Shown here: positions 6,969 through 31,223 of the stretch, piece after piece | How positions within the stretch are numbered: position 1 is the first letter of the stretch | Layout: each line of letters begins with the position of its first letter | Assembly (NCBI GenBank): GCA_041657885.1 | Contig: JBBABB010000002.1 | Span: 25,483 to 89,482 of the forward strand | From: Minisyncoccota bacterium | Lineage (GTDB): Bacteria > Patescibacteriota > Minisyncoccia > Phycocordibacterales > UBA9973 | Reading direction: 5' to 3' | DNA: 64,000 nucleotides | Position numbers and translations under genes: made by a program | Notes under the pieces: generated by a model | Told to the model about the DNA's origin: nothing | The model's database searches: none | The model's input: the letters and a program-made list of their open reading frames with translations, nothing else

Positions 6969-7030
6969 GATATGATTTATTTGTTTATTTTTTCAAGAGG
7001 ATTTGTTTAAATTTATCGTGACAAACGCTT

Positions 7031-7128
7031 ATTTATCCCCACACCTATATTTCCATCAAAAATATATAACAGCAGGGTATTTTTACTAAAAAAGCAGAAT
7101 GATGGGAATATGGGTGTGGGGATTTATC
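7031..7128. repeat. P-family MITE-like element. TIRs atttatCCCCACACCTATATTTCCATC / GATGGGAATATGGGTGTGGGGatttatc.
   Basis: The inverted pair is visible. The inner sequence aaaaagcagaatgatgggaatat recurs in the copy at 20539-20683. Confidence 0.8.
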
Positions 7129-7207
7129 AAGATAAAATTAAACAAATCCGAACAATATGCCTTTGTACTAATTATCTAAGTAATTAAGCATCATGTCAAG
7201 GAGTTTT

Positions 7208-7350
7208 ACCCCCACACCCACTTTTTCATTGCTTTAATATTGTGCCATTAAAATATTCAGAAATATATAAAATATCTTTATAAATCAAGTATAAATAATA
7301 ATATTCCTAAAAAATAAAGCACAATGATGAAAAAGTAGGTGTGGGGGTTT
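7208..7350. repeat. P-family MITE-like element. TIRs CCCCCACACCCACTTTTTCAT / ATGAAAAAGTAGGTGTGGGGG with an AT-rich core of about 100 bp.
   Basis: A perfect inverted repeat of about 21 bp. Confidence 0.8.
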
Positions 7351-7360
7351 ATGCACTTTT

Positions 7361-7527
7361 TATCCCCACACCTATATTTTTATAGATTTTCATCTTTTAA
7401 ATAAAAAACTACTTAATTGGTATTTCTAATAAATTATCGCGTAAAAATAGACATTTTGTATTCAAAATAATAAAAATATAGGTGTGGGGATTTATCCCAC
7501 CTTGCCACCTATATTTTTATTGCAGGC
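7361..7527. repeat. P-family element (tatCCCCACACCTATATTTTtata ... AAAAATATAGGTGTGGGGATTTATC) plus an adjacent partial inverted fragment ccaCCTATATTTTTATTGCAGGC.
   Basis: Inverted TIRs are present. The 3' fragment shares TTTTTATTGCAGGC with the copy at 1209-1287. Confidence 0.75.
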
Positions 7528-7771
7528 TCCTTTTTATCCTAATTTTAAGTTGAAATAATGCCCTGCCGTCCTTTTTTAGAGACGATTCTCTTTTCCTTGC
7601 ATCACTCTCATCAAAATATGATTCATAATATCTAAGTTCAAAAGGACGACGACTTTTAGTGGAAAAAACTTTACCATTATTATGATCCGAGAGCCTGCGT
7701 CGTAAATCATTTGTTGAGCCAATGTAAATATTATTGTCTTTTTTACTTTTTAAAATATATAAGTAGAACAT
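7517..7771 (-). CDS. GIY-YIG nuclease-superfamily small protein (YhbQ/UPF0213-like, 84 aa).
   Basis: N-terminal motif YLYILKSKKDNNIYIGSTNDLRRRLSDHN is a classic GIY-YIG. The gene is flanked on both sides by same-orientation copies of the P-family TIR. Confidence 0.8.
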   Translation of the reverse strand: MFYLYILKSKKDNNIYIGSTNDLRRRLSDHNNGKVFSTKSRRPFELRYYESYFDESDARKRESSLKKDGRALFQLKIRIKRSLQ

Positions 7772-7800
7772 ATATTTATATTATATGATTTATGACTATA

Positions 7801-7826
7801 AAAATATAGGTGTGGGGATTTATCCA
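7801..7826. repeat. Solo P-family TIR (AAAATATAGGTGTGGGGATTTATCC). It contains a perfect DnaA-box-like nonamer TTATCCACA.
   Basis: Identical to the right TIR at 7473-7497. Confidence 0.7.
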
Positions 7827-7866
7827 CAGGGCTCCAAAACCCTTTCCATAGTAGCAAGGACGGTCC

Positions 7867-8583
7867 TTGCTAATTTTTTATAAACCTTCAAAATTATTTA
7901 TGCAATCATTGAGATATTGCATTAATATACCATTTATGCTAGGATGTGGACTGGAGATTAGGTTAAACCTAAGTTCCAGTAGATATATGAATAATAAAGC
8001 TAAAAAAGGGGAATATTTAGACATTCTATTAAGATCAAAGAATAGCGTATTTTCAACGAAAGATATCGCTTTGCTTTGGCGTGATGTTCAAACAACGGCA
8101 TCGCAAGTAAGATTGAACTATTATGTTAAAGCTGGGAAGCTTATTAGAATTCGTAGAGGTATTTATGCAAAAGATAAAAATTATGATAAATATGAATTTG
8201 CGACTAAGATTTTTAGACCCTCATATATAAGTTTTGAAACTGTCTTAGGTGCATCTGGTATGACTTTCCAATATTATGGAAATATTTTTATTGCTTCATA
8301 TTTAAAGAGGGAGATTAAATGTGACGGACAAACTTATTCTTTTGTAAAAATGAAGGATTCTATTTTAAGTAACCCAAAAGGAATAGATCAAACAGGTGAA
8401 TATGCTATTGCTTCAAAAGAAAGAGCTTTCTTGGATACAATTTATAGAAGTAAAAAGTATTATTTTGATAATCATTCTCCGCTTGATTGGGATAAGGTAT
8501 TTGAAATGTTGCCAATTTATAATAATAAAAAAATGGCAAAAACTGTGCAAAAATATTATAAGGATTATAAAACTACTAAATAA
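7867..8583 (+). CDS. AbiEi-family type IV TA antitoxin / transcriptional regulator.
   Basis: wHTH region carries the LIRIRRGIYAK (RRG.Y) signature and the gene abuts the AbiEii-like gene downstream. The 5' end is uncertain. An internal ATG (MNNKAKKGEYLDILL) about 120 nt in is the likelier start. Confidence 0.65.
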   Translation: MLIFYKPSKLFMQSLRYCINIPFMLGCGLEIRLNLSSSRYMNNKAKKGEYLDILLRSKNSVFSTKDIALLWRDVQTTASQVRLNYYVKAGKLIRIRRGIYAKDKNYDKYEFATKIFRPSYISFETVLGASGMTFQYYGNIFIASYLKREIKCDGQTYSFVKMKDSILSNPKGIDQTGEYAIASKERAFLDTIYRSKKYYFDNHSPLDWDKVFEMLPIYNNKKMAKTVQKYYKDYKTTK

Positions 8584-8585
8584 AT

Positions 8586-9290
8586 ATGACATTAAATTAT
8601 CCAATACATAAAAATATTCTCGTACAGATACTTATTGATATTTACTCGGATACGACAATTAGCCCATATTTAGGTTTTAAAGGTGGAACGGCTGCTTATT
8701 TGTTCTATGGACTTGATCGTTATTCTGTTGACTTAGATATTGATATTTTAGATGAATCAAAAGAAGATTACATCTTTGAACAAGTTGAAAAAATAGGGAG
8801 AAAATATGGAGAAGTAAAAGAATCTCAAAAGAAAAGATTTAATCTAATATTTTTAATATCGTATGAGAATAAAGAAAAAAATGCTCAGAATATAAAAATT
8901 GAGATTAATCGTAGGTCTTTTGATTCAAAATATGAAGTTCGTGCCTTTAATGGTATTTCAATGCTTGTAATGGTCAAAGAAGATATGTTTGCTCATAAGC
9001 TTGTAGCCATGCACGAACGACTAGGAATAACTAATCGTGATATTTTTGATGTATGGTTTTTCTCAAAAAATAACTGGGAAATTAATAAAGAAATTATAGA
9101 AAAAAGAACAGGAATGTCATATAAAAAATTTCTTGAAGTATGCATTAAAGAATTAGAAAAGATGAATAATAACAATATTCTCCATGGTCTTGGTGAGCTT
9201 ATAACAGAAAAACAGAAAGCTTGGGTAAGATCAAAATTAAAACTTGAGACAATTTTACAACTAAAATTAAGATTAGAATCCGAAAATTAA
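8586..9290 (+). CDS. AbiEii/AbiGii-family nucleotidyltransferase toxin (DUF1814-like), 234 aa.
   Basis: Motif FKGGTAAYLFYGLDRYSVDLDIDI is the GGTAL..R.S.DID nucleotidyltransferase signature. Start lies 2 nt after the upstream stop. Confidence 0.7.
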   Translation: MTLNYPIHKNILVQILIDIYSDTTISPYLGFKGGTAAYLFYGLDRYSVDLDIDILDESKEDYIFEQVEKIGRKYGEVKESQKKRFNLIFLISYENKEKNAQNIKIEINRRSFDSKYEVRAFNGISMLVMVKEDMFAHKLVAMHERLGITNRDIFDVWFFSKNNWEINKEIIEKRTGMSYKKFLEVCIKELEKMNNNNILHGLGELITEKQKAWVRSKLKLETILQLKLRLESEN

Positions 9291-12121: not shown

Positions 12122-12171
12122 ACCCCCACACCTACTTTGGGATTCAATTATCAAAGTAGGTGTGGGGATGG
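12122..12171. repeat. Short P-family hairpin (ACCCCCACACCTACTTTG ... CAAAGTAGGTGTGGGGAT) in the divergent promoter / 5' leader region of nusA.
   Basis: A 17-bp inverted repeat with the same CCCCACACCTA core as the other P elements. Confidence 0.75.
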
Positions 12172-20538: not shown

Positions 20539-20683
20539 CTTGCCCCCACACCTATATTCCCATAGCTTTTATTCTGTTAAGCAAAATTCCTAATCATTTC
20601 ATATTTTTGATTGAATTATAGAGTTATAACCTTTTTTTATTGAAAAAGCAGAATAATGGGAATATAGGTGTGGGGGCTTGTAT
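20539..20683. repeat. P-family MITE-like element. TIRs cttgCCCCCACACCTATATTCCCAT / ATGGGAATATAGGTGTGGGGGcttg.
   Basis: A perfect inverted repeat of about 25 bp. Internal sequence is homologous to the copy at 7031-7128. Confidence 0.85.
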
Positions 20684-22800: not shown

Positions 22801-23217
22801 CTACAATATTATATTATCCACAACCTTTACTCTCGCTTTTCTGTTGTCCAAATCTAGATAGACCACCAAAAGGTCAAATTGCCAATCAACATACCCCAAT
22901 CTTTTGCTTATAAGATAGGTCTCTACTACCCTTCTCAACCTTCTCATTTTCATTGGATGCATATTTTCCTCTGACCGTCCTGCACCATTCTCCAAAACTT
23001 CTTTTTGTGGATAAACATAATCTAAATTTGAAACACTTTTTGATTTAACTTCAATAAAATATCTTTTATCATTTTTTTGAGCAATAATATCAATTTCTCC
23101 CCATTTCTTTGTATAATTTCTTTCTAATATAGAAAAGCCATGTTTAATGAGAAACTTGCAGGCTACTCCTTCACCCAACTCACCTATTTTTTGAGAATTT
23201 GAGGTAAAATTTTTCAT
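22801..23217 (-). CDS. yraN: YraN-family (UPF0102) endonuclease.
   Basis: GELGEGVACKFLIKHGFSILERN ... GEIDIIAQKNDKRYFIEVKSK. Confidence 0.85.
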   Translation of the reverse strand: MKNFTSNSQKIGELGEGVACKFLIKHGFSILERNYTKKWGEIDIIAQKNDKRYFIEVKSKSVSNLDYVYPQKEVLENGAGRSEENMHPMKMRRLRRVVETYLISKRLGYVDWQFDLLVVYLDLDNRKARVKVVDNIIL

Positions 23218-23501
23218 ATTACATTTAAAATCGTTTCACGTGAAACTATATTAATATAATGGACACAAAAACAACAAAACCAAAATGGTCTTTATAAAAA
23301 TATCTTTATTTATCAAGGTATTATTGTCAAAACTTCAATTATTTGTCTCTCATAAAAATGACCTCAGTTGTGTCTTTTATAAACAATACACACATAGTTA
23401 TCCACAGAAGTCTTAATTTTAAAGTGTTCTGGATGTGGATAAAGGACTAATAAAGGTCAAACCGTAAATTAATTTTTCAAGTATAAAAAGACTTCTTTTT
23501 G

Positions 23502-30233: not shown

Positions 30234-31223
30234 TTATTTGCTATGAAATTTCTTATGCACATCTCGAAGTTGTTTATCTGTAACATGAGTATATATCTGA
30301 GTGGTTGCAATATTTGCATGGCCGAGCATCATTTGAACTGAACGGATATCGGCACCATTAGAAAGTAAATCCGTCGCAAACGAGTGGCGAATAACGTGAG
30401 GTGTAACTTTTTTTGAGATACCGGCAACTATTGCATAATATTTTACAATGCGTTCTACAGAGCGGGGAGTAAGACGATTTGTATTAGAGGTCGTACCTCT
30501 AGTGCTCCCGAGGTCCGACCTCTGATTTCTTGAATACTGTATAAATAATGGTTCATCCATATCCTTGCGAGCTTTCAGATATTCACGAATTGCATTTTTT
30601 GCAGAATCGGACAAAAACACAACTCGAACTTTTTCTCCTTTACCACGGACAGAGAATTCATCTTTGGATAAATCCAAATCTCGGTCAAGAGAGCAAAGTT
30701 CGGACAAACGTAACCCTGTTGAGAAAAACAATTCTAATATCGCTTTATCTCGTAAAATTTTCTGTGTTTTAGAGGTCAGATCTCTAGTGCTCCCGAGGTC
30801 TGACCTCTTTAATAATTCATTTGGTGCATTCAATAATCTATTGAGTTCATCAACGGATATTAAATCAAGCGAGCGCTCTTTTATTTTTGCTAGGTCTATG
30901 CGGTCGGGAGGTAGGGAAGTAATATCTCTTTTCATTAAATATTTGAGAAATGAGCGAAGGGCAATCAAGTGATAATTCTGAGTATTTTTCTTTAGTGTAC
31001 TTGATTGTTGTCCACTAACTTTTACTCCCGGCTGACGATTAAGGAACAGGCGAAATTCACGAATCTTTTCGTCAGTTATTTCTTTTGGTCCCGAAATTTT
31101 GGCAAATTCAAAAAAGCGACTTATATAATGGTCATAATTATTAACCGTTTTTAAACTATTGCCTTTCTCAATTTCAACATGTTCAAGAAATTCTCTTTTT
31201 AATTGTTCAAGTTCGGTAGTCAC
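30234..31223 (-). CDS. Tyrosine recombinase, XerC/XerD-like.
   Basis: C-terminal RHSFATDLLSNGADIRSVQMMLGHANIATTQIYTHV. Carries two in-frame palindromic family E insertions. Confidence 0.88.
   Translation of the reverse strand: MTTELEQLKREFLEHVEIEKGNSLKTVNNYDHYISRFFEFAKISGPKEITDEKIREFRLFLNRQPGVKVSGQQSSTLKKNTQNYHLIALRSFLKYLMKRDITSLPPDRIDLAKIKERSLDLISVDELNRLLNAPNELLKRSDLGSTRDLTSKTQKILRDKAILELFFSTGLRLSELCSLDRDLDLSKDEFSVRGKGEKVRVVFLSDSAKNAIREYLKARKDMDEPLFIQYSRNQRSDLGSTRGTTSNTNRLTPRSVERIVKYYAIVAGISKKVTPHVIRHSFATDLLSNGADIRSVQMMLGHANIATTQIYTHVTDKQLRDVHKKFHSK
30485..30525. repeat. Family E palindrome (AGAGGTCgtACCTCTAGTGCTCCCGAGGTCcGACCTCT), in-frame within the recombinase gene.
   Basis: Outer arms AGAGGTC..GACCTCT are a perfect inverted repeat. 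Encodes ..RSDLGSTRGTTSNT. Confidence 0.8.
30770..30812. repeat. Family E palindrome, second copy (AGAGGTCAGAtCTCTAGTGCTCCCGAGGTCTGACCTCT).
   Basis: About 90% identical to 30485-30525. Encodes ..RSDLGSTRDLTSK. Confidence 0.8.

Follow-up and report, generated by a model that had tools for sequence, protein, structure and literature searches.

The closest described counterpart of the arrangement considered here is Ssn/NTS (Chenal et al. 2025, Nat Commun 16:2388), which has been characterised in Neisseria and in Wolbachia and of which other Proteobacteria provide more examples (PMC11893778). SsnA of Neisseria is a 94-amino acid, single-domain GIY-YIG nuclease that binds NTS, a hairpin repeat, and cleaves single-stranded DNA immediately upstream, being inactive on duplex DNA and on RNA; Ssn genes are flanked by their cognate hairpin repeats and the nuclease modulates natural transformation (PMC11893778). 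A related motif, SRM, is nearby in 71% of Ssn homologues and on both sides in 42%, and the authors likened the NTS-ssnA-NTS layout to an insertion sequence (IS) and to the repetitive extragenic palindromes and their partner gene, REP/RAYT (PMC11893778). Among genomes with more than 200 SRM repeats, 81% have the gene. Is anything of this kind present in the Patescibacteria? The DNA examined, below termed the window, is a stretch of 64,000 nucleotides from a Minisyncoccota bacterium (contig JBBABB010000002.1 of assembly GCA_041657885.1, positions 25,483 to 89,482), low in GC (~35%) and with genes that include nusA, rny, hup, clpP, tig and one for an H+-pyrophosphatase. A first-pass annotation had drawn attention to a family of inverted repeats in it, the P family, and taken them for MITEs (miniature transposable elements with inverted repeats). 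Our reading, to which we would give a probability of roughly 60%, is that these repeats are the paired hairpin arms of a cassette of ~280–340 bp, consisting of arm, GIY-YIG gene and arm, and of six miniatures of it. It is supported, as an Ssn-like cassette, by the link of gene and arms, the co-variation of the arms, direct repeats at the flanks, sites filled in one genome and empty in a relative, and insertions into pilin genes.

The core of the repeat is the 11-mer CCCCACACCTA. Allowing up to one mismatch, it is present at 13 sites in the window where 0.34 are expected (none of 100 shuffles reached 13), and all 13 are confined to the first 21 kb; at two mismatches there are five additional sites, which is in line with chance. 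Twelve of the 13 form six convergent pairs (1214/1281, 7037/7121, 7210/7346, 7364/7489, 12124/12167 and 20544/20675), in which the CCCC arm always precedes the GGGG arm, and the units are all intergenic. That the family is real, multi-copy and intergenic with inverted termini, as first claimed, is borne out by these counts. The termini had been thought perfect over 17–25 bp; the arms are 16–27 nt long and 92–100% complementary, and so not all of them are perfect. The six gene-less units, of 44–149 nt, are inverted pairs with interiors of 12–115 nt at irregular spacing, and the expectation that they would not prove CRISPR-like was right. Each of the six pairs folds into a long single-strand hairpin (z of −5.9 to −10.5 against shuffles).

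What of the thirteenth core, 7807–7817, which lies within an arm at 7798–7817 and is apparently solo? Its partner is on the far side of an open reading frame (ORF): 7506–7520 is 100% complementary over 15 nt to 7798–7812 and belongs to a left arm, 7496–7520, the core of which is split by a 6-nt insertion, cttgcc (CCCAC-cttgcc-ACCTATATTTTTAT). The ORF between them, 7517–7771 on the minus strand and with its stop codon within the arm, encodes a stand-alone nuclease of 84 amino acids that is essentially a single GIY-YIG domain (PF01541, E 8.1e-20, residues 1–71) without an extra DNA-binding domain. The whole gene-bearing unit, on the minus strand at 7490–7823, thus comprises the degenerate arm 7496–7520, the ORF, the intact arm 7798–7817 and an ATTTAT flank at either end (7490–7495 and 7818–7823). 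Because the solo arm pairs with the degenerate one across the GIY-YIG gene, the 'MITEs' of the window can be regarded as gene-less versions of a GIY-YIG cassette, and since that pair brackets the ORF, the cluster is three gene-less units followed by one that bears the gene. Several boundaries drawn earlier have to be moved in consequence. What was taken to be one element at 7361–7527 is a pair that ends at 7495, the remainder, 7496–7520, being the degenerate left arm of the next unit; the supposed full element at 7801–7826 is the right arm of the GIY-YIG-bearing unit; and the GIY-YIG gene, regarded as a bystander in a gap packed with repeats, is the cargo of a seventh unit.

The cluster as a whole runs from 7031 to 7823, with arms back to back at 7346/7364 and 7489/7496, gaps of 6–17 nt and alternating orientation. 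Its first gene-less unit, 7031–7127, is atttat-CCCCACACC ... GGTGTGGGG-atttat, with 24-nt arms that are 92% complementary (z −6.1). The second, 7204–7352, is ttttac-CCCCACACCCAC ... GTAGGTGTGGGG-gtttat, with arms of 22 nt at 95% (z −5.9), and the third, 7358–7495, is ttttat-CCCCACACCTATATTTTTAT ... ATAAAAATATAGGTGTGGGG-atttat, with arms of 22 nt at 100% (z −6.2); its right flank repeat, 7490–7495, is a single copy of ATTTAT that it has in common with the gene-bearing unit. Outside the cluster, unit 1208–1287 is gcaagc-CCCCACACCTACTTTTTTAT ... ATAAAAAAGTAGGTGTGGGG-gcaagc, with 27-nt arms, 93% complementary, and a predicted hairpin of −34.8 kcal/mol (z −10.5); its 6-nt flanks are direct repeats and it stands 49 nt past the stop of a CARDB-domain gene of 1507 amino acids. 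A short unit at 12124–12167, between the divergent genes for an 881-amino acid CARDB protein and nusA, has perfect 16-nt arms and a 12-nt loop (z −6.3), and is without a flanking direct repeat. The last, 20539–20680, lies between rny and hup and is cttg-CCCCCACACCTATATTCCCAT ... ATGGGAATATAGGTGTGGGGG-cttg, with 22-nt arms at 100% (z −7.6). The statement that copies sit beside giant surface-protein genes holds for the 1507- and 881-residue CARDB genes, and another is between rny and hup; interior sequence in common to the copies at 7031 and 20539 (AAAAAGCAGAAT.ATGGGAATAT), also reported at first, is present as described. Unit 7031–7127 is itself enclosed by a second inverted repeat of 27 nt, 6999–7025/7123–7149, 89% complementary (GGATTTGTTTAAATTTATCGTGACAAA / TTTATCAAGATAAAATTAAACAAATCC), and seems to be located in the loop of another palindrome. 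Directly adjoining the cluster is an AbiEi/AbiEii pair (type IV toxin-antitoxin / abortive infection) at 7867–9290, beside the 900-bp gap and not inside it as had been written; the GIY-YIG/AbiE arrangement is unchanged in three strain contigs (L121–L123; L numbers denote loci outside the window).

Neither the protein nor the arms are peculiar to this genome. A 100% identical protein is on record, named as from a Candidatus Paceibacterota metagenome-assembled genome (MAG), while exact look-ups of the window's RNase Y and NusA gave no record; there are 588 homologues, of which 102 of the 120 examined, at 71–86% identity, are exactly 84 amino acids long, and Y5, Y16, G18, R26, H30, N31, E50 and E62 are invariant in their alignment. 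For the arms, contigs of one genome per species were scanned for CCCCACACCYA followed after 60–120 nt by TRGGTGTGGGG, spacings at which short units are under-sampled, and at least 118 stretches matched. Among the matches listed, most, untallied, are Patescibacteria by record title (Saccharibacteria, Paceibacterota, Nomura-, Yonath-, Moran-, Kaiser-, Wolfebacteria and others), while ~14 are Planctomycetota, ~7 Omnitrophota, and a few Stahlbacteria, Nitrospinota, 'Gammaproteobacteria' and Actinomycetota, with one archaeal MAG; some of the unexpected taxon labels may be binning errors. The family, with its 11-nt core in Patescibacteria, Omnitrophota, Planctomycetota and others, is not confined to one lineage. 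Viral contigs gave 0 matches to the paired-arm pattern, and there is therefore no sign of a phage origin. In the arm-pattern loci, whenever convergent, well-paired arms have an interior of 160–600 nt, that interior encodes a GIY-YIG homologue; no other ORF turned up between matched arms. Intact gene-bearing units elsewhere are exemplified by L071 6556–6877 and L097 6798–7089, and a copy with a frameshifted gene by L071 2904–3224.

A second sample was chosen by protein only: 80 metagenome loci encoding proteins 51–71% identical to that of the window, with sufficient flank in 73. Inverted repeats of at least 14 nt directly bracket the GIY-YIG ORF in 51 of the 73, usually at 0–40 nt from the start codon ATG and running over the stop, and the core CCYACAC is present in at least 27 of the 51. 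Variant cores (CCCCGCACC, CCCAGCACC, CCCCCACCAC and CCCCTCACCCAG) tend, on a reading of the table and uncounted, to accompany the more distant proteins, and this suggests that arms and protein co-evolve. The protein P0002, 83% identical and in another genomic context (L124), is encoded within gttatc-TCCCACACCTATATTTTTAT..ORF..ATAAAAATATAGGTGTGGGA-gttatc. The association of gene and arms is no accident of this window. Upstream of the P0002 cassette, at ~2150–2420 of the same locus, a tRNA gene is followed by a partial duplicate of the 5′ part of the tRNA (..cgactgagctacgagcggata.. twice), which hints at another insertion event at a tRNA. Bracketing extends to distant small GIY-YIG homologues and to repeats unrelated to the P arms, ACCCGCCCGC..CGCCAGCGAG around the gene at L100 3500–3850 and CCCGATTCAATTCAAAA around that at L056 1120–1460 (both on the minus strand), and at L074 7180–7530, also minus, the gene is within a duplicated tRNA segment; it seems general that small GIY-YIG nucleases are bracketed by lineage-specific repeats. 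Two ORFs, P0131 (214 amino acids) and P0142 (205), have tandem double GIY-YIG domains. Two published observations are compatible with this: GIY-YIG ORFs in rRNA genes of the candidate phyla radiation are located in non-intron insertions (PMC11270868), and the genes for which transfer out of Patescibacteria has been inferred include GIY-YIG genes (PMC12455944).

What in the arms is conserved, sequence or pairing? When 131 distinct units are aligned on the core, with positions 1–9 fixed by the search pattern, C:G makes up 74% of the pairs at stem position 0, T:A or C:G is found at position 10 and A:T at position 11. Above these, at positions 12–20, all four types of Watson-Crick pair are found, and 52–94% are paired compared with 26–38% with shuffled partners. 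A unit is accordingly built on a constant stem base, in which (C)CCCCACACC-YA pairs with TR-GGTGTGGGG(G), topped by some nine positions that are conserved for pairing only. Even among the copies in the window the upper stem varies, and the partner arm has changed to match (TATTTCCAT, CTTTTTCAT, TATTTTTAT, TATTCCCAT and CTTTTTTAT). Were both ends read as duplex DNA by a protein, they would be expected to stay the same throughout a genome; it is pairing that is preserved instead. Since pairing and not sequence is kept within a genome, it is favoured that the functional form is a folded single strand, or else that copying regenerates one arm from the other. With the stem changes matched in both arms, hairpins of the REP/RAYT or NTS/Ssn sort are therefore a better fit than terminal repeats bound by a transposase.

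Read in the minus orientation, unit 1208–1287 agrees with the gene-bearing unit past the arms at both ends. The agreement takes in GCCTGCAATAA, which is the final three codons and the stop of the GIY-YIG ORF, and on this account the unit can be considered a deletion derivative. In L034, a unit of 94 nt retains coding sequence for 20 C-terminal residues of the protein at 80% identity, and many genomes have a class of units of ~130 nt whose ends are of the type ..CATTATTCTGCTT / AAGCAGAATAATG... Some of the miniatures, at least, derive from the gene-bearing unit by internal deletion.

The check for target-site duplications proposed at the outset found direct repeats of 4–6 nt to be strongly enriched beside the units. 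For the 4 nt outside the C/G that extends the core, 59 of 133 units have direct repeats only and 2 of 133 inverted repeats only. Read outward, the flank consensus is gTWWAC, with gtttac, gttgac, gtatac, gataac and gcaagc as typical flanks; the repeats are typically TTTA(C) or TTAT(C), and in one sub-family CAAG. In the window ATTTAT is used three times and CAAG/CTTG twice. Gene-bearing units of the protein sample have perfect 4-nt flank repeats in 9 of 26 cases and agree at three or more of the four positions in 16 of 26, some of the repeats being of 5–6 nt, and tandem units in L005 have one flank in common. The other check, for presence or absence, found differences between relatives. Two Phycisphaerae species whose flanks are ~79% identical differ at an orthologous site by a 103-nt unit, there in L019 and not in L020. 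In the rny-hup spacer of a relative (L136), unit 20539–20680 is absent, homology resumes exactly at the CTTG after GGGGG, and a canonical intrinsic terminator is present in its place. In addition, the strain contig L121, of the same population, at ~2660–2760, differs from the window's 7031–7127 by a 21-nt deletion and several substitutions, one of them in the core, between flanks that are otherwise identical, which suggests replacement or conversion among copies.

Further insertions are in a sister branch of the nuclease. A phmmer search of 1.84 billion cluster representatives with the window protein yielded 7517 clusters at E≤1e-3 and 925 at E≤1e-10, and 33 of the nearest 150 clusters (all within P0132–P0268) are in-frame fusions, of 124–372 amino acids, of a GIY-YIG domain to a type IV prepilin. 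In these a GIY-YIG domain 50–60% identical to the window protein is followed by a short linker, the canonical prepilin site ..K[SN]GAG|FTLIE, the pilin helix and the pilin body; one fusion is located in a pilM-pilN operon. At L217 (76–369) the ORF is bracketed by TTTACCCAGCACCACTTTT and AAAAGTGGTGCTGGGTTTAC, and the right arm itself codes for K-S-G-A-G-F-T. In three loci the original prepilin leader is kept upstream of the left arm (MKKEKG-FT in L218, MEKKNHKSLIG-FT in L176 and MKG-FT in L196), with TTTAC on both sides of the inserted segment (L218 456–1214, L176 ~1460–1830 and L196 ~1480–1870). These are unambiguous insertions at Gly-Phe-Thr codons with a 5-nt duplication. The arm cores of this branch, CCCAGCACC and CCCCGCACC, are one or two bases off the core in the window, and the duplicated TTTAC is the commonest flank of the P family. 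The pilin link is that of a sister branch and not of the window copies, because none of 377 canonical GGTGTGGGG arms is followed by a prepilin motif; nor is there a genuine prepilin site in the window, where the sole match to the motif is inside a UPF0102 ORF. The nuclease would be released by prepilin peptidase, at ..GAG|FTLIE, as a leader peptide. No report of a GIY-YIG/pilin cassette fusion was found in the literature searched. The comparison that comes to mind is with inteins and intron-borne homing endonuclease genes, which are likewise cassettes inside a gene of an essential type whose product can still be made; the difference is that here a host signal peptidase would act on the protein and splicing is not involved, and that this nuclease is without the long recognition site of a homing endonuclease.

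How might such a cassette move? By analogy with Ssn/NTS and REP/RAYT, the nuclease would recognise, in single-stranded DNA, the arm pair in its folded form by way of the stem base made of CCCCACACC and GGTGTGGGG, and nick beside it; copies of cassette and miniatures would then enter short TTTAC-like targets. The reaction would be finished by host repair or replication, and these are invoked because a GIY-YIG hydrolase cannot itself join DNA; conceivable routes of integration are host repair, template switching in replication and ligation of excised single strands. Binding and cutting of the arms by the nuclease, a single-stranded substrate and spread driven by the nuclease are all putative here, being modelled on those systems. 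A larger proposal, which we put forward tentatively and which is rather more likely to fail than to hold, is that this is a new minimal mobile cassette of ~300 bp, an 84-residue GIY-YIG protein with CCCCACACC-based hairpin ends, that spreads with its miniatures across Patescibacteria, Omnitrophota and Planctomycetota at TTTAC-like sites. In it, one branch would have specialised on the Gly-Phe-Thr codons of prepilin genes, its nuclease being a leader of 85–130 residues cut off by prepilin peptidase, which would spare the host product in the manner of an intein and release the enzyme at the inner face of the membrane by the DNA-uptake machinery.

Several points count against the cassette reading. 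GIY-YIG enzymes hydrolyse DNA and have no strand transfer activity, which leaves the joining step without a candidate. Because one of its arms is damaged, the gene-bearing unit 7490–7823 may now be immobile. The flank repeats are alike among the copies of one genome and may belong to the element itself instead of being target duplications, and in the L019/L020 comparison the boundaries are within 2 nt of an arm plus one flank copy, an ambiguity of 2 nt. A bracketing repeat of at least 14 nt was not found for 22 of the 73 protein-sampled homologues, and the other genomes were sampled as 8-kb windows. As for Ssn, an SRM is a self-contained hairpin of 20–50 nt on each side of the gene, whereas P arms pair across the whole unit with the gene, or 12–115 nt of filler, as the loop. 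The published SRM string, HGTCWYN(0-2)YYVSBRHN(0-5)WNVSBRGN(0-2)RNCYNB, has 0 matches in the window (0.16 expected) and four, a chance level, in 826 kb of arm-bearing loci, though it gives 4–5 matches around each of the genes used as controls, Azospirillum lipoferum AZOLI_RS22735 and Rhizobium RHEC894_RS31490. The window protein is 34–39% identical to those SRM-flanked Azospirillum and Rhizobium Ssn proteins (tblastn E 3e-4 and 6e-5, on plasmids; pairwise E 2e-12; hhalign probability 98%), and it is about equally close to UPF0213 (YazA, 42%; PDB 1ywl, E 3e-5).

Of the explanations that compete with an insertion-proficient cassette, the best surviving is that the system has been domesticated and is now immobile, as has been proposed for NTS/SsnA of Neisseria. 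The repeats would then mark the chromosome and the nuclease cut single-stranded DNA that bears them, transforming strands for instance, with some copies serving as hairpins at transcript ends; the spread would be ancient and the benefit the host's. The Ssn precedent of a nuclease that modulates natural transformation (PMC11893778) speaks for this, as does the strong constraint on the protein evident from the constancy of its 84-residue length. The disrupted arm of the window's gene-bearing unit is identical in four strain contigs, unit 20539 takes the place of the intrinsic terminator seen in L136, on the minus strand a T-run comes after unit 1208, close past the 1507-residue gene, and the sister branch is fused to genes for type IV pilins, part of the DNA-uptake machinery. 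Filled and empty sites, however, show insertion events, as do the duplications at the pilin genes, and the L121 variant of 7031–7127 between identical flanks points to ongoing turnover. Moreover, most of the hairpins are without a T-run and one is between divergent genes. The terminator scanner did not call the P hairpins, their loops being too long, and reported only small sub-hairpins at 1234–1251, 7484–7500 and 7811–7828; some copies may act as intrinsic terminators, which is not a general role. Domestication in place of mobility we consider unlikely on this balance, although as a statement about function it is compatible with the cassette anatomy.

Classical MITEs, the initial interpretation, fare worse. 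They would be derivatives of an insertion sequence elsewhere, with a DDE-type transposase binding the ends as duplex, and the GIY-YIG gene would be a passenger of one copy. In form the interpretation was apt: the units are small and multi-copy with inverted termini, have short flanking direct repeats of 4–6 nt and are present in one relative and absent from another. It is the partner that is missing. No transposase is encoded in the first 31 kb of the window, where the sole recombinase is an integrase-family tyrosine recombinase (30234–31223), and the classical definition of a MITE does not apply because there is no transposase partner in the neighbourhood. Nor does a passenger gene accord with GIY-YIG being the only coding cargo between matched arms, with arms that bracket it in most of the loci chosen by protein, or with an arm core that appears, from the table, to track the divergence of the protein; and variation of the post-core arm among the copies of one genome, with the partner matched, is unexpected of a transposase that reads duplex DNA. 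We regard this explanation as improbable. Weakest, and very improbable, is that the units act as RNA, as structured non-coding RNAs or transcript stabilisers or terminators with a secondary gene association: very stable predicted hairpins, intergenic sites and stem co-variation would suit this, but nothing in the window except four tRNAs matches Rfam at gathering thresholds, the palindromes are strand-symmetric and lie either way round with respect to the genes beside them, the mismatches in the stems of gene-bearing units are without a G·U-type strand bias (9 versus 11, transversions being commoner at 26, in a small sample), the direct repeats at the flanks and the empty sites belong to the level of DNA, and the substrate of Ssn is single-stranded DNA, not RNA (PMC11893778).

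One further early suggestion concerned replication, since the arm was held to be a near match to a DnaA box. The arm's TTATCCCCA disrupts the CACA part of TTATNCACA, and for the arm that reading finds no support. An exact box had also been noted in the copy at 7801, and TTATCCACA is indeed exact there, at 7820–7828; it is situated outside the arm, where it is composed of the flank ATTTAT and CCACAG. The same junction of flank repeat and CCACAG recurs in five other independent loci, and in all an exact DnaA 9-mer TTATCCACA (usually within TTATCCACAG) comes directly after the right arm in six loci: the window, L028, L092, L108, L152 and L124. Boxes beside right arms amount to 17 of the 51 exact DnaA boxes in the 1.15 Mb examined. 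The recurrent TTATCCACAG could be a target that is preferred, TTATC^CACAG, or what is left of a truncated arm next to it. Apart from the P family, the window has a group of four exact DnaA boxes in ~630 nt at 22814–23442, out of eight in the window where ~0.5 would be expected; they are in and around a UPF0102 (YraN-like) gene, 22801–23217, beside tRNA genes. An origin-related or DnaA-regulated region there is possible; dnaA was not found among the window ORFs scanned with Pfam.

Why should a small palindrome and a small ORF be of concern? A joint explanation is offered for hundreds of 'hypothetical' short palindromes between genes and of small ORFs labelled 'GIY-YIG family' in metagenome-assembled genomes. 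The candidate phyla radiation and phyla close to it would have an analogous nuclease-repeat pair with a different and easily searchable arm, CCCCACACCTA, extending the kind of system of which Ssn/NTS is the known case, and every arm-protein pair is a candidate new specificity for tools that cut single-stranded DNA. The evidence of insertion, from flank duplications, empty sites and preserved pre-insertion sequence, none of which the Ssn paper had, bears directly on whether cassettes of this type are selfish mobile DNA. Should it prove true, the pilin-leader branch would represent a new mode of life for a selfish gene inside a host gene, and would tie nucleases physically to the apparatus for DNA uptake, on which these reduced bacteria are believed to rely.

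How then does the P family stand in relation to what is known? No description of this arm family, or of a link between GIY-YIG genes and repeats in Patescibacteria, was found in the literature searched. As to a link with integron attC sites or another recombinase, no integrase adjoins the units, and the one tyrosine recombinase lies ~10 kb away from the closest of them. Bacterial MITEs such as Correia elements resemble P units in size, inverted termini, flanking repeats and multi-copy intergenic spread, and also in being deletion derivatives of a gene-bearing copy and in presence/absence polymorphism. They differ in that their parent IS encodes a transposase while the gene-bearing P copy encodes no known one, and in that P arms co-vary within each copy and are not uniform in a genome. 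At ~300 bp the P cassette is smaller than typical bacterial insertion sequences. With IS200/IS605 the points in common are hairpin ends, there recognised as single-stranded DNA, and insertion beside a short target, TTTAC-like for the P family; the target of IS608 is TTAC. Insertion of that type would mimic a duplication were the same short sequence present at the right end. The P family, on the other hand, is without the HUH TnpA of IS200/IS605, its ends are symmetric and there is no guide-like co-variation of flank and stem: mutual information between flank and inner stem peaks at 0.15 bit, a value that mirrors nothing but the structure of sub-families, and guide-target pairing in the manner of IS608 is set aside as without support.

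REP/BIME elements and RAYT are a further comparison. They too are short intergenic hairpins, with a conserved part and a part kept for pairing only, in clusters of alternating orientation, and there also a single small gene of the nuclease type is bracketed by the repeats, the presumed substrate being hairpin DNA in single-stranded form. The partner of REPs is a Y1 HUH transposase; that of the P family is a GIY-YIG hydrolase (PF01541), with no covalent intermediate from which to rejoin DNA. REPs are also shorter than P units of 60–150 nt, and P units have 4–6-nt flanking direct repeats. Membership among REPtrons is rejected, the flanked gene being of PF01541 and not that of an HUH enzyme. Nearest of all is Ssn. 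Common to both are a single-domain GIY-YIG protein of ~90 residues without a DNA-binding domain, a gene flanked on both sides by its cognate inverted-repeat sequence in an IS-like architecture, and a repeat with many intergenic copies and clusters whose sequence differs by protein lineage. The arms themselves are unrelated, NTS being CGTCATTCCCGCG..GCGGGAATCYRG, and since the SRM string gives no match in the window P repeats cannot be filed as SRM. The C-terminal tail W.R.WK..L.E..NP.W.DL of two SRM-flanked proteins is absent from the 84-residue protein. P-family hosts are mainly Patescibacteria, of which the text of the Ssn paper makes no mention, and flank duplications and empty sites, documented here for the P family, are not reported for Ssn. 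The P cassette is best filed, then, as one that by analogy would work like Ssn/SRM, with an architecture that is clearly different.

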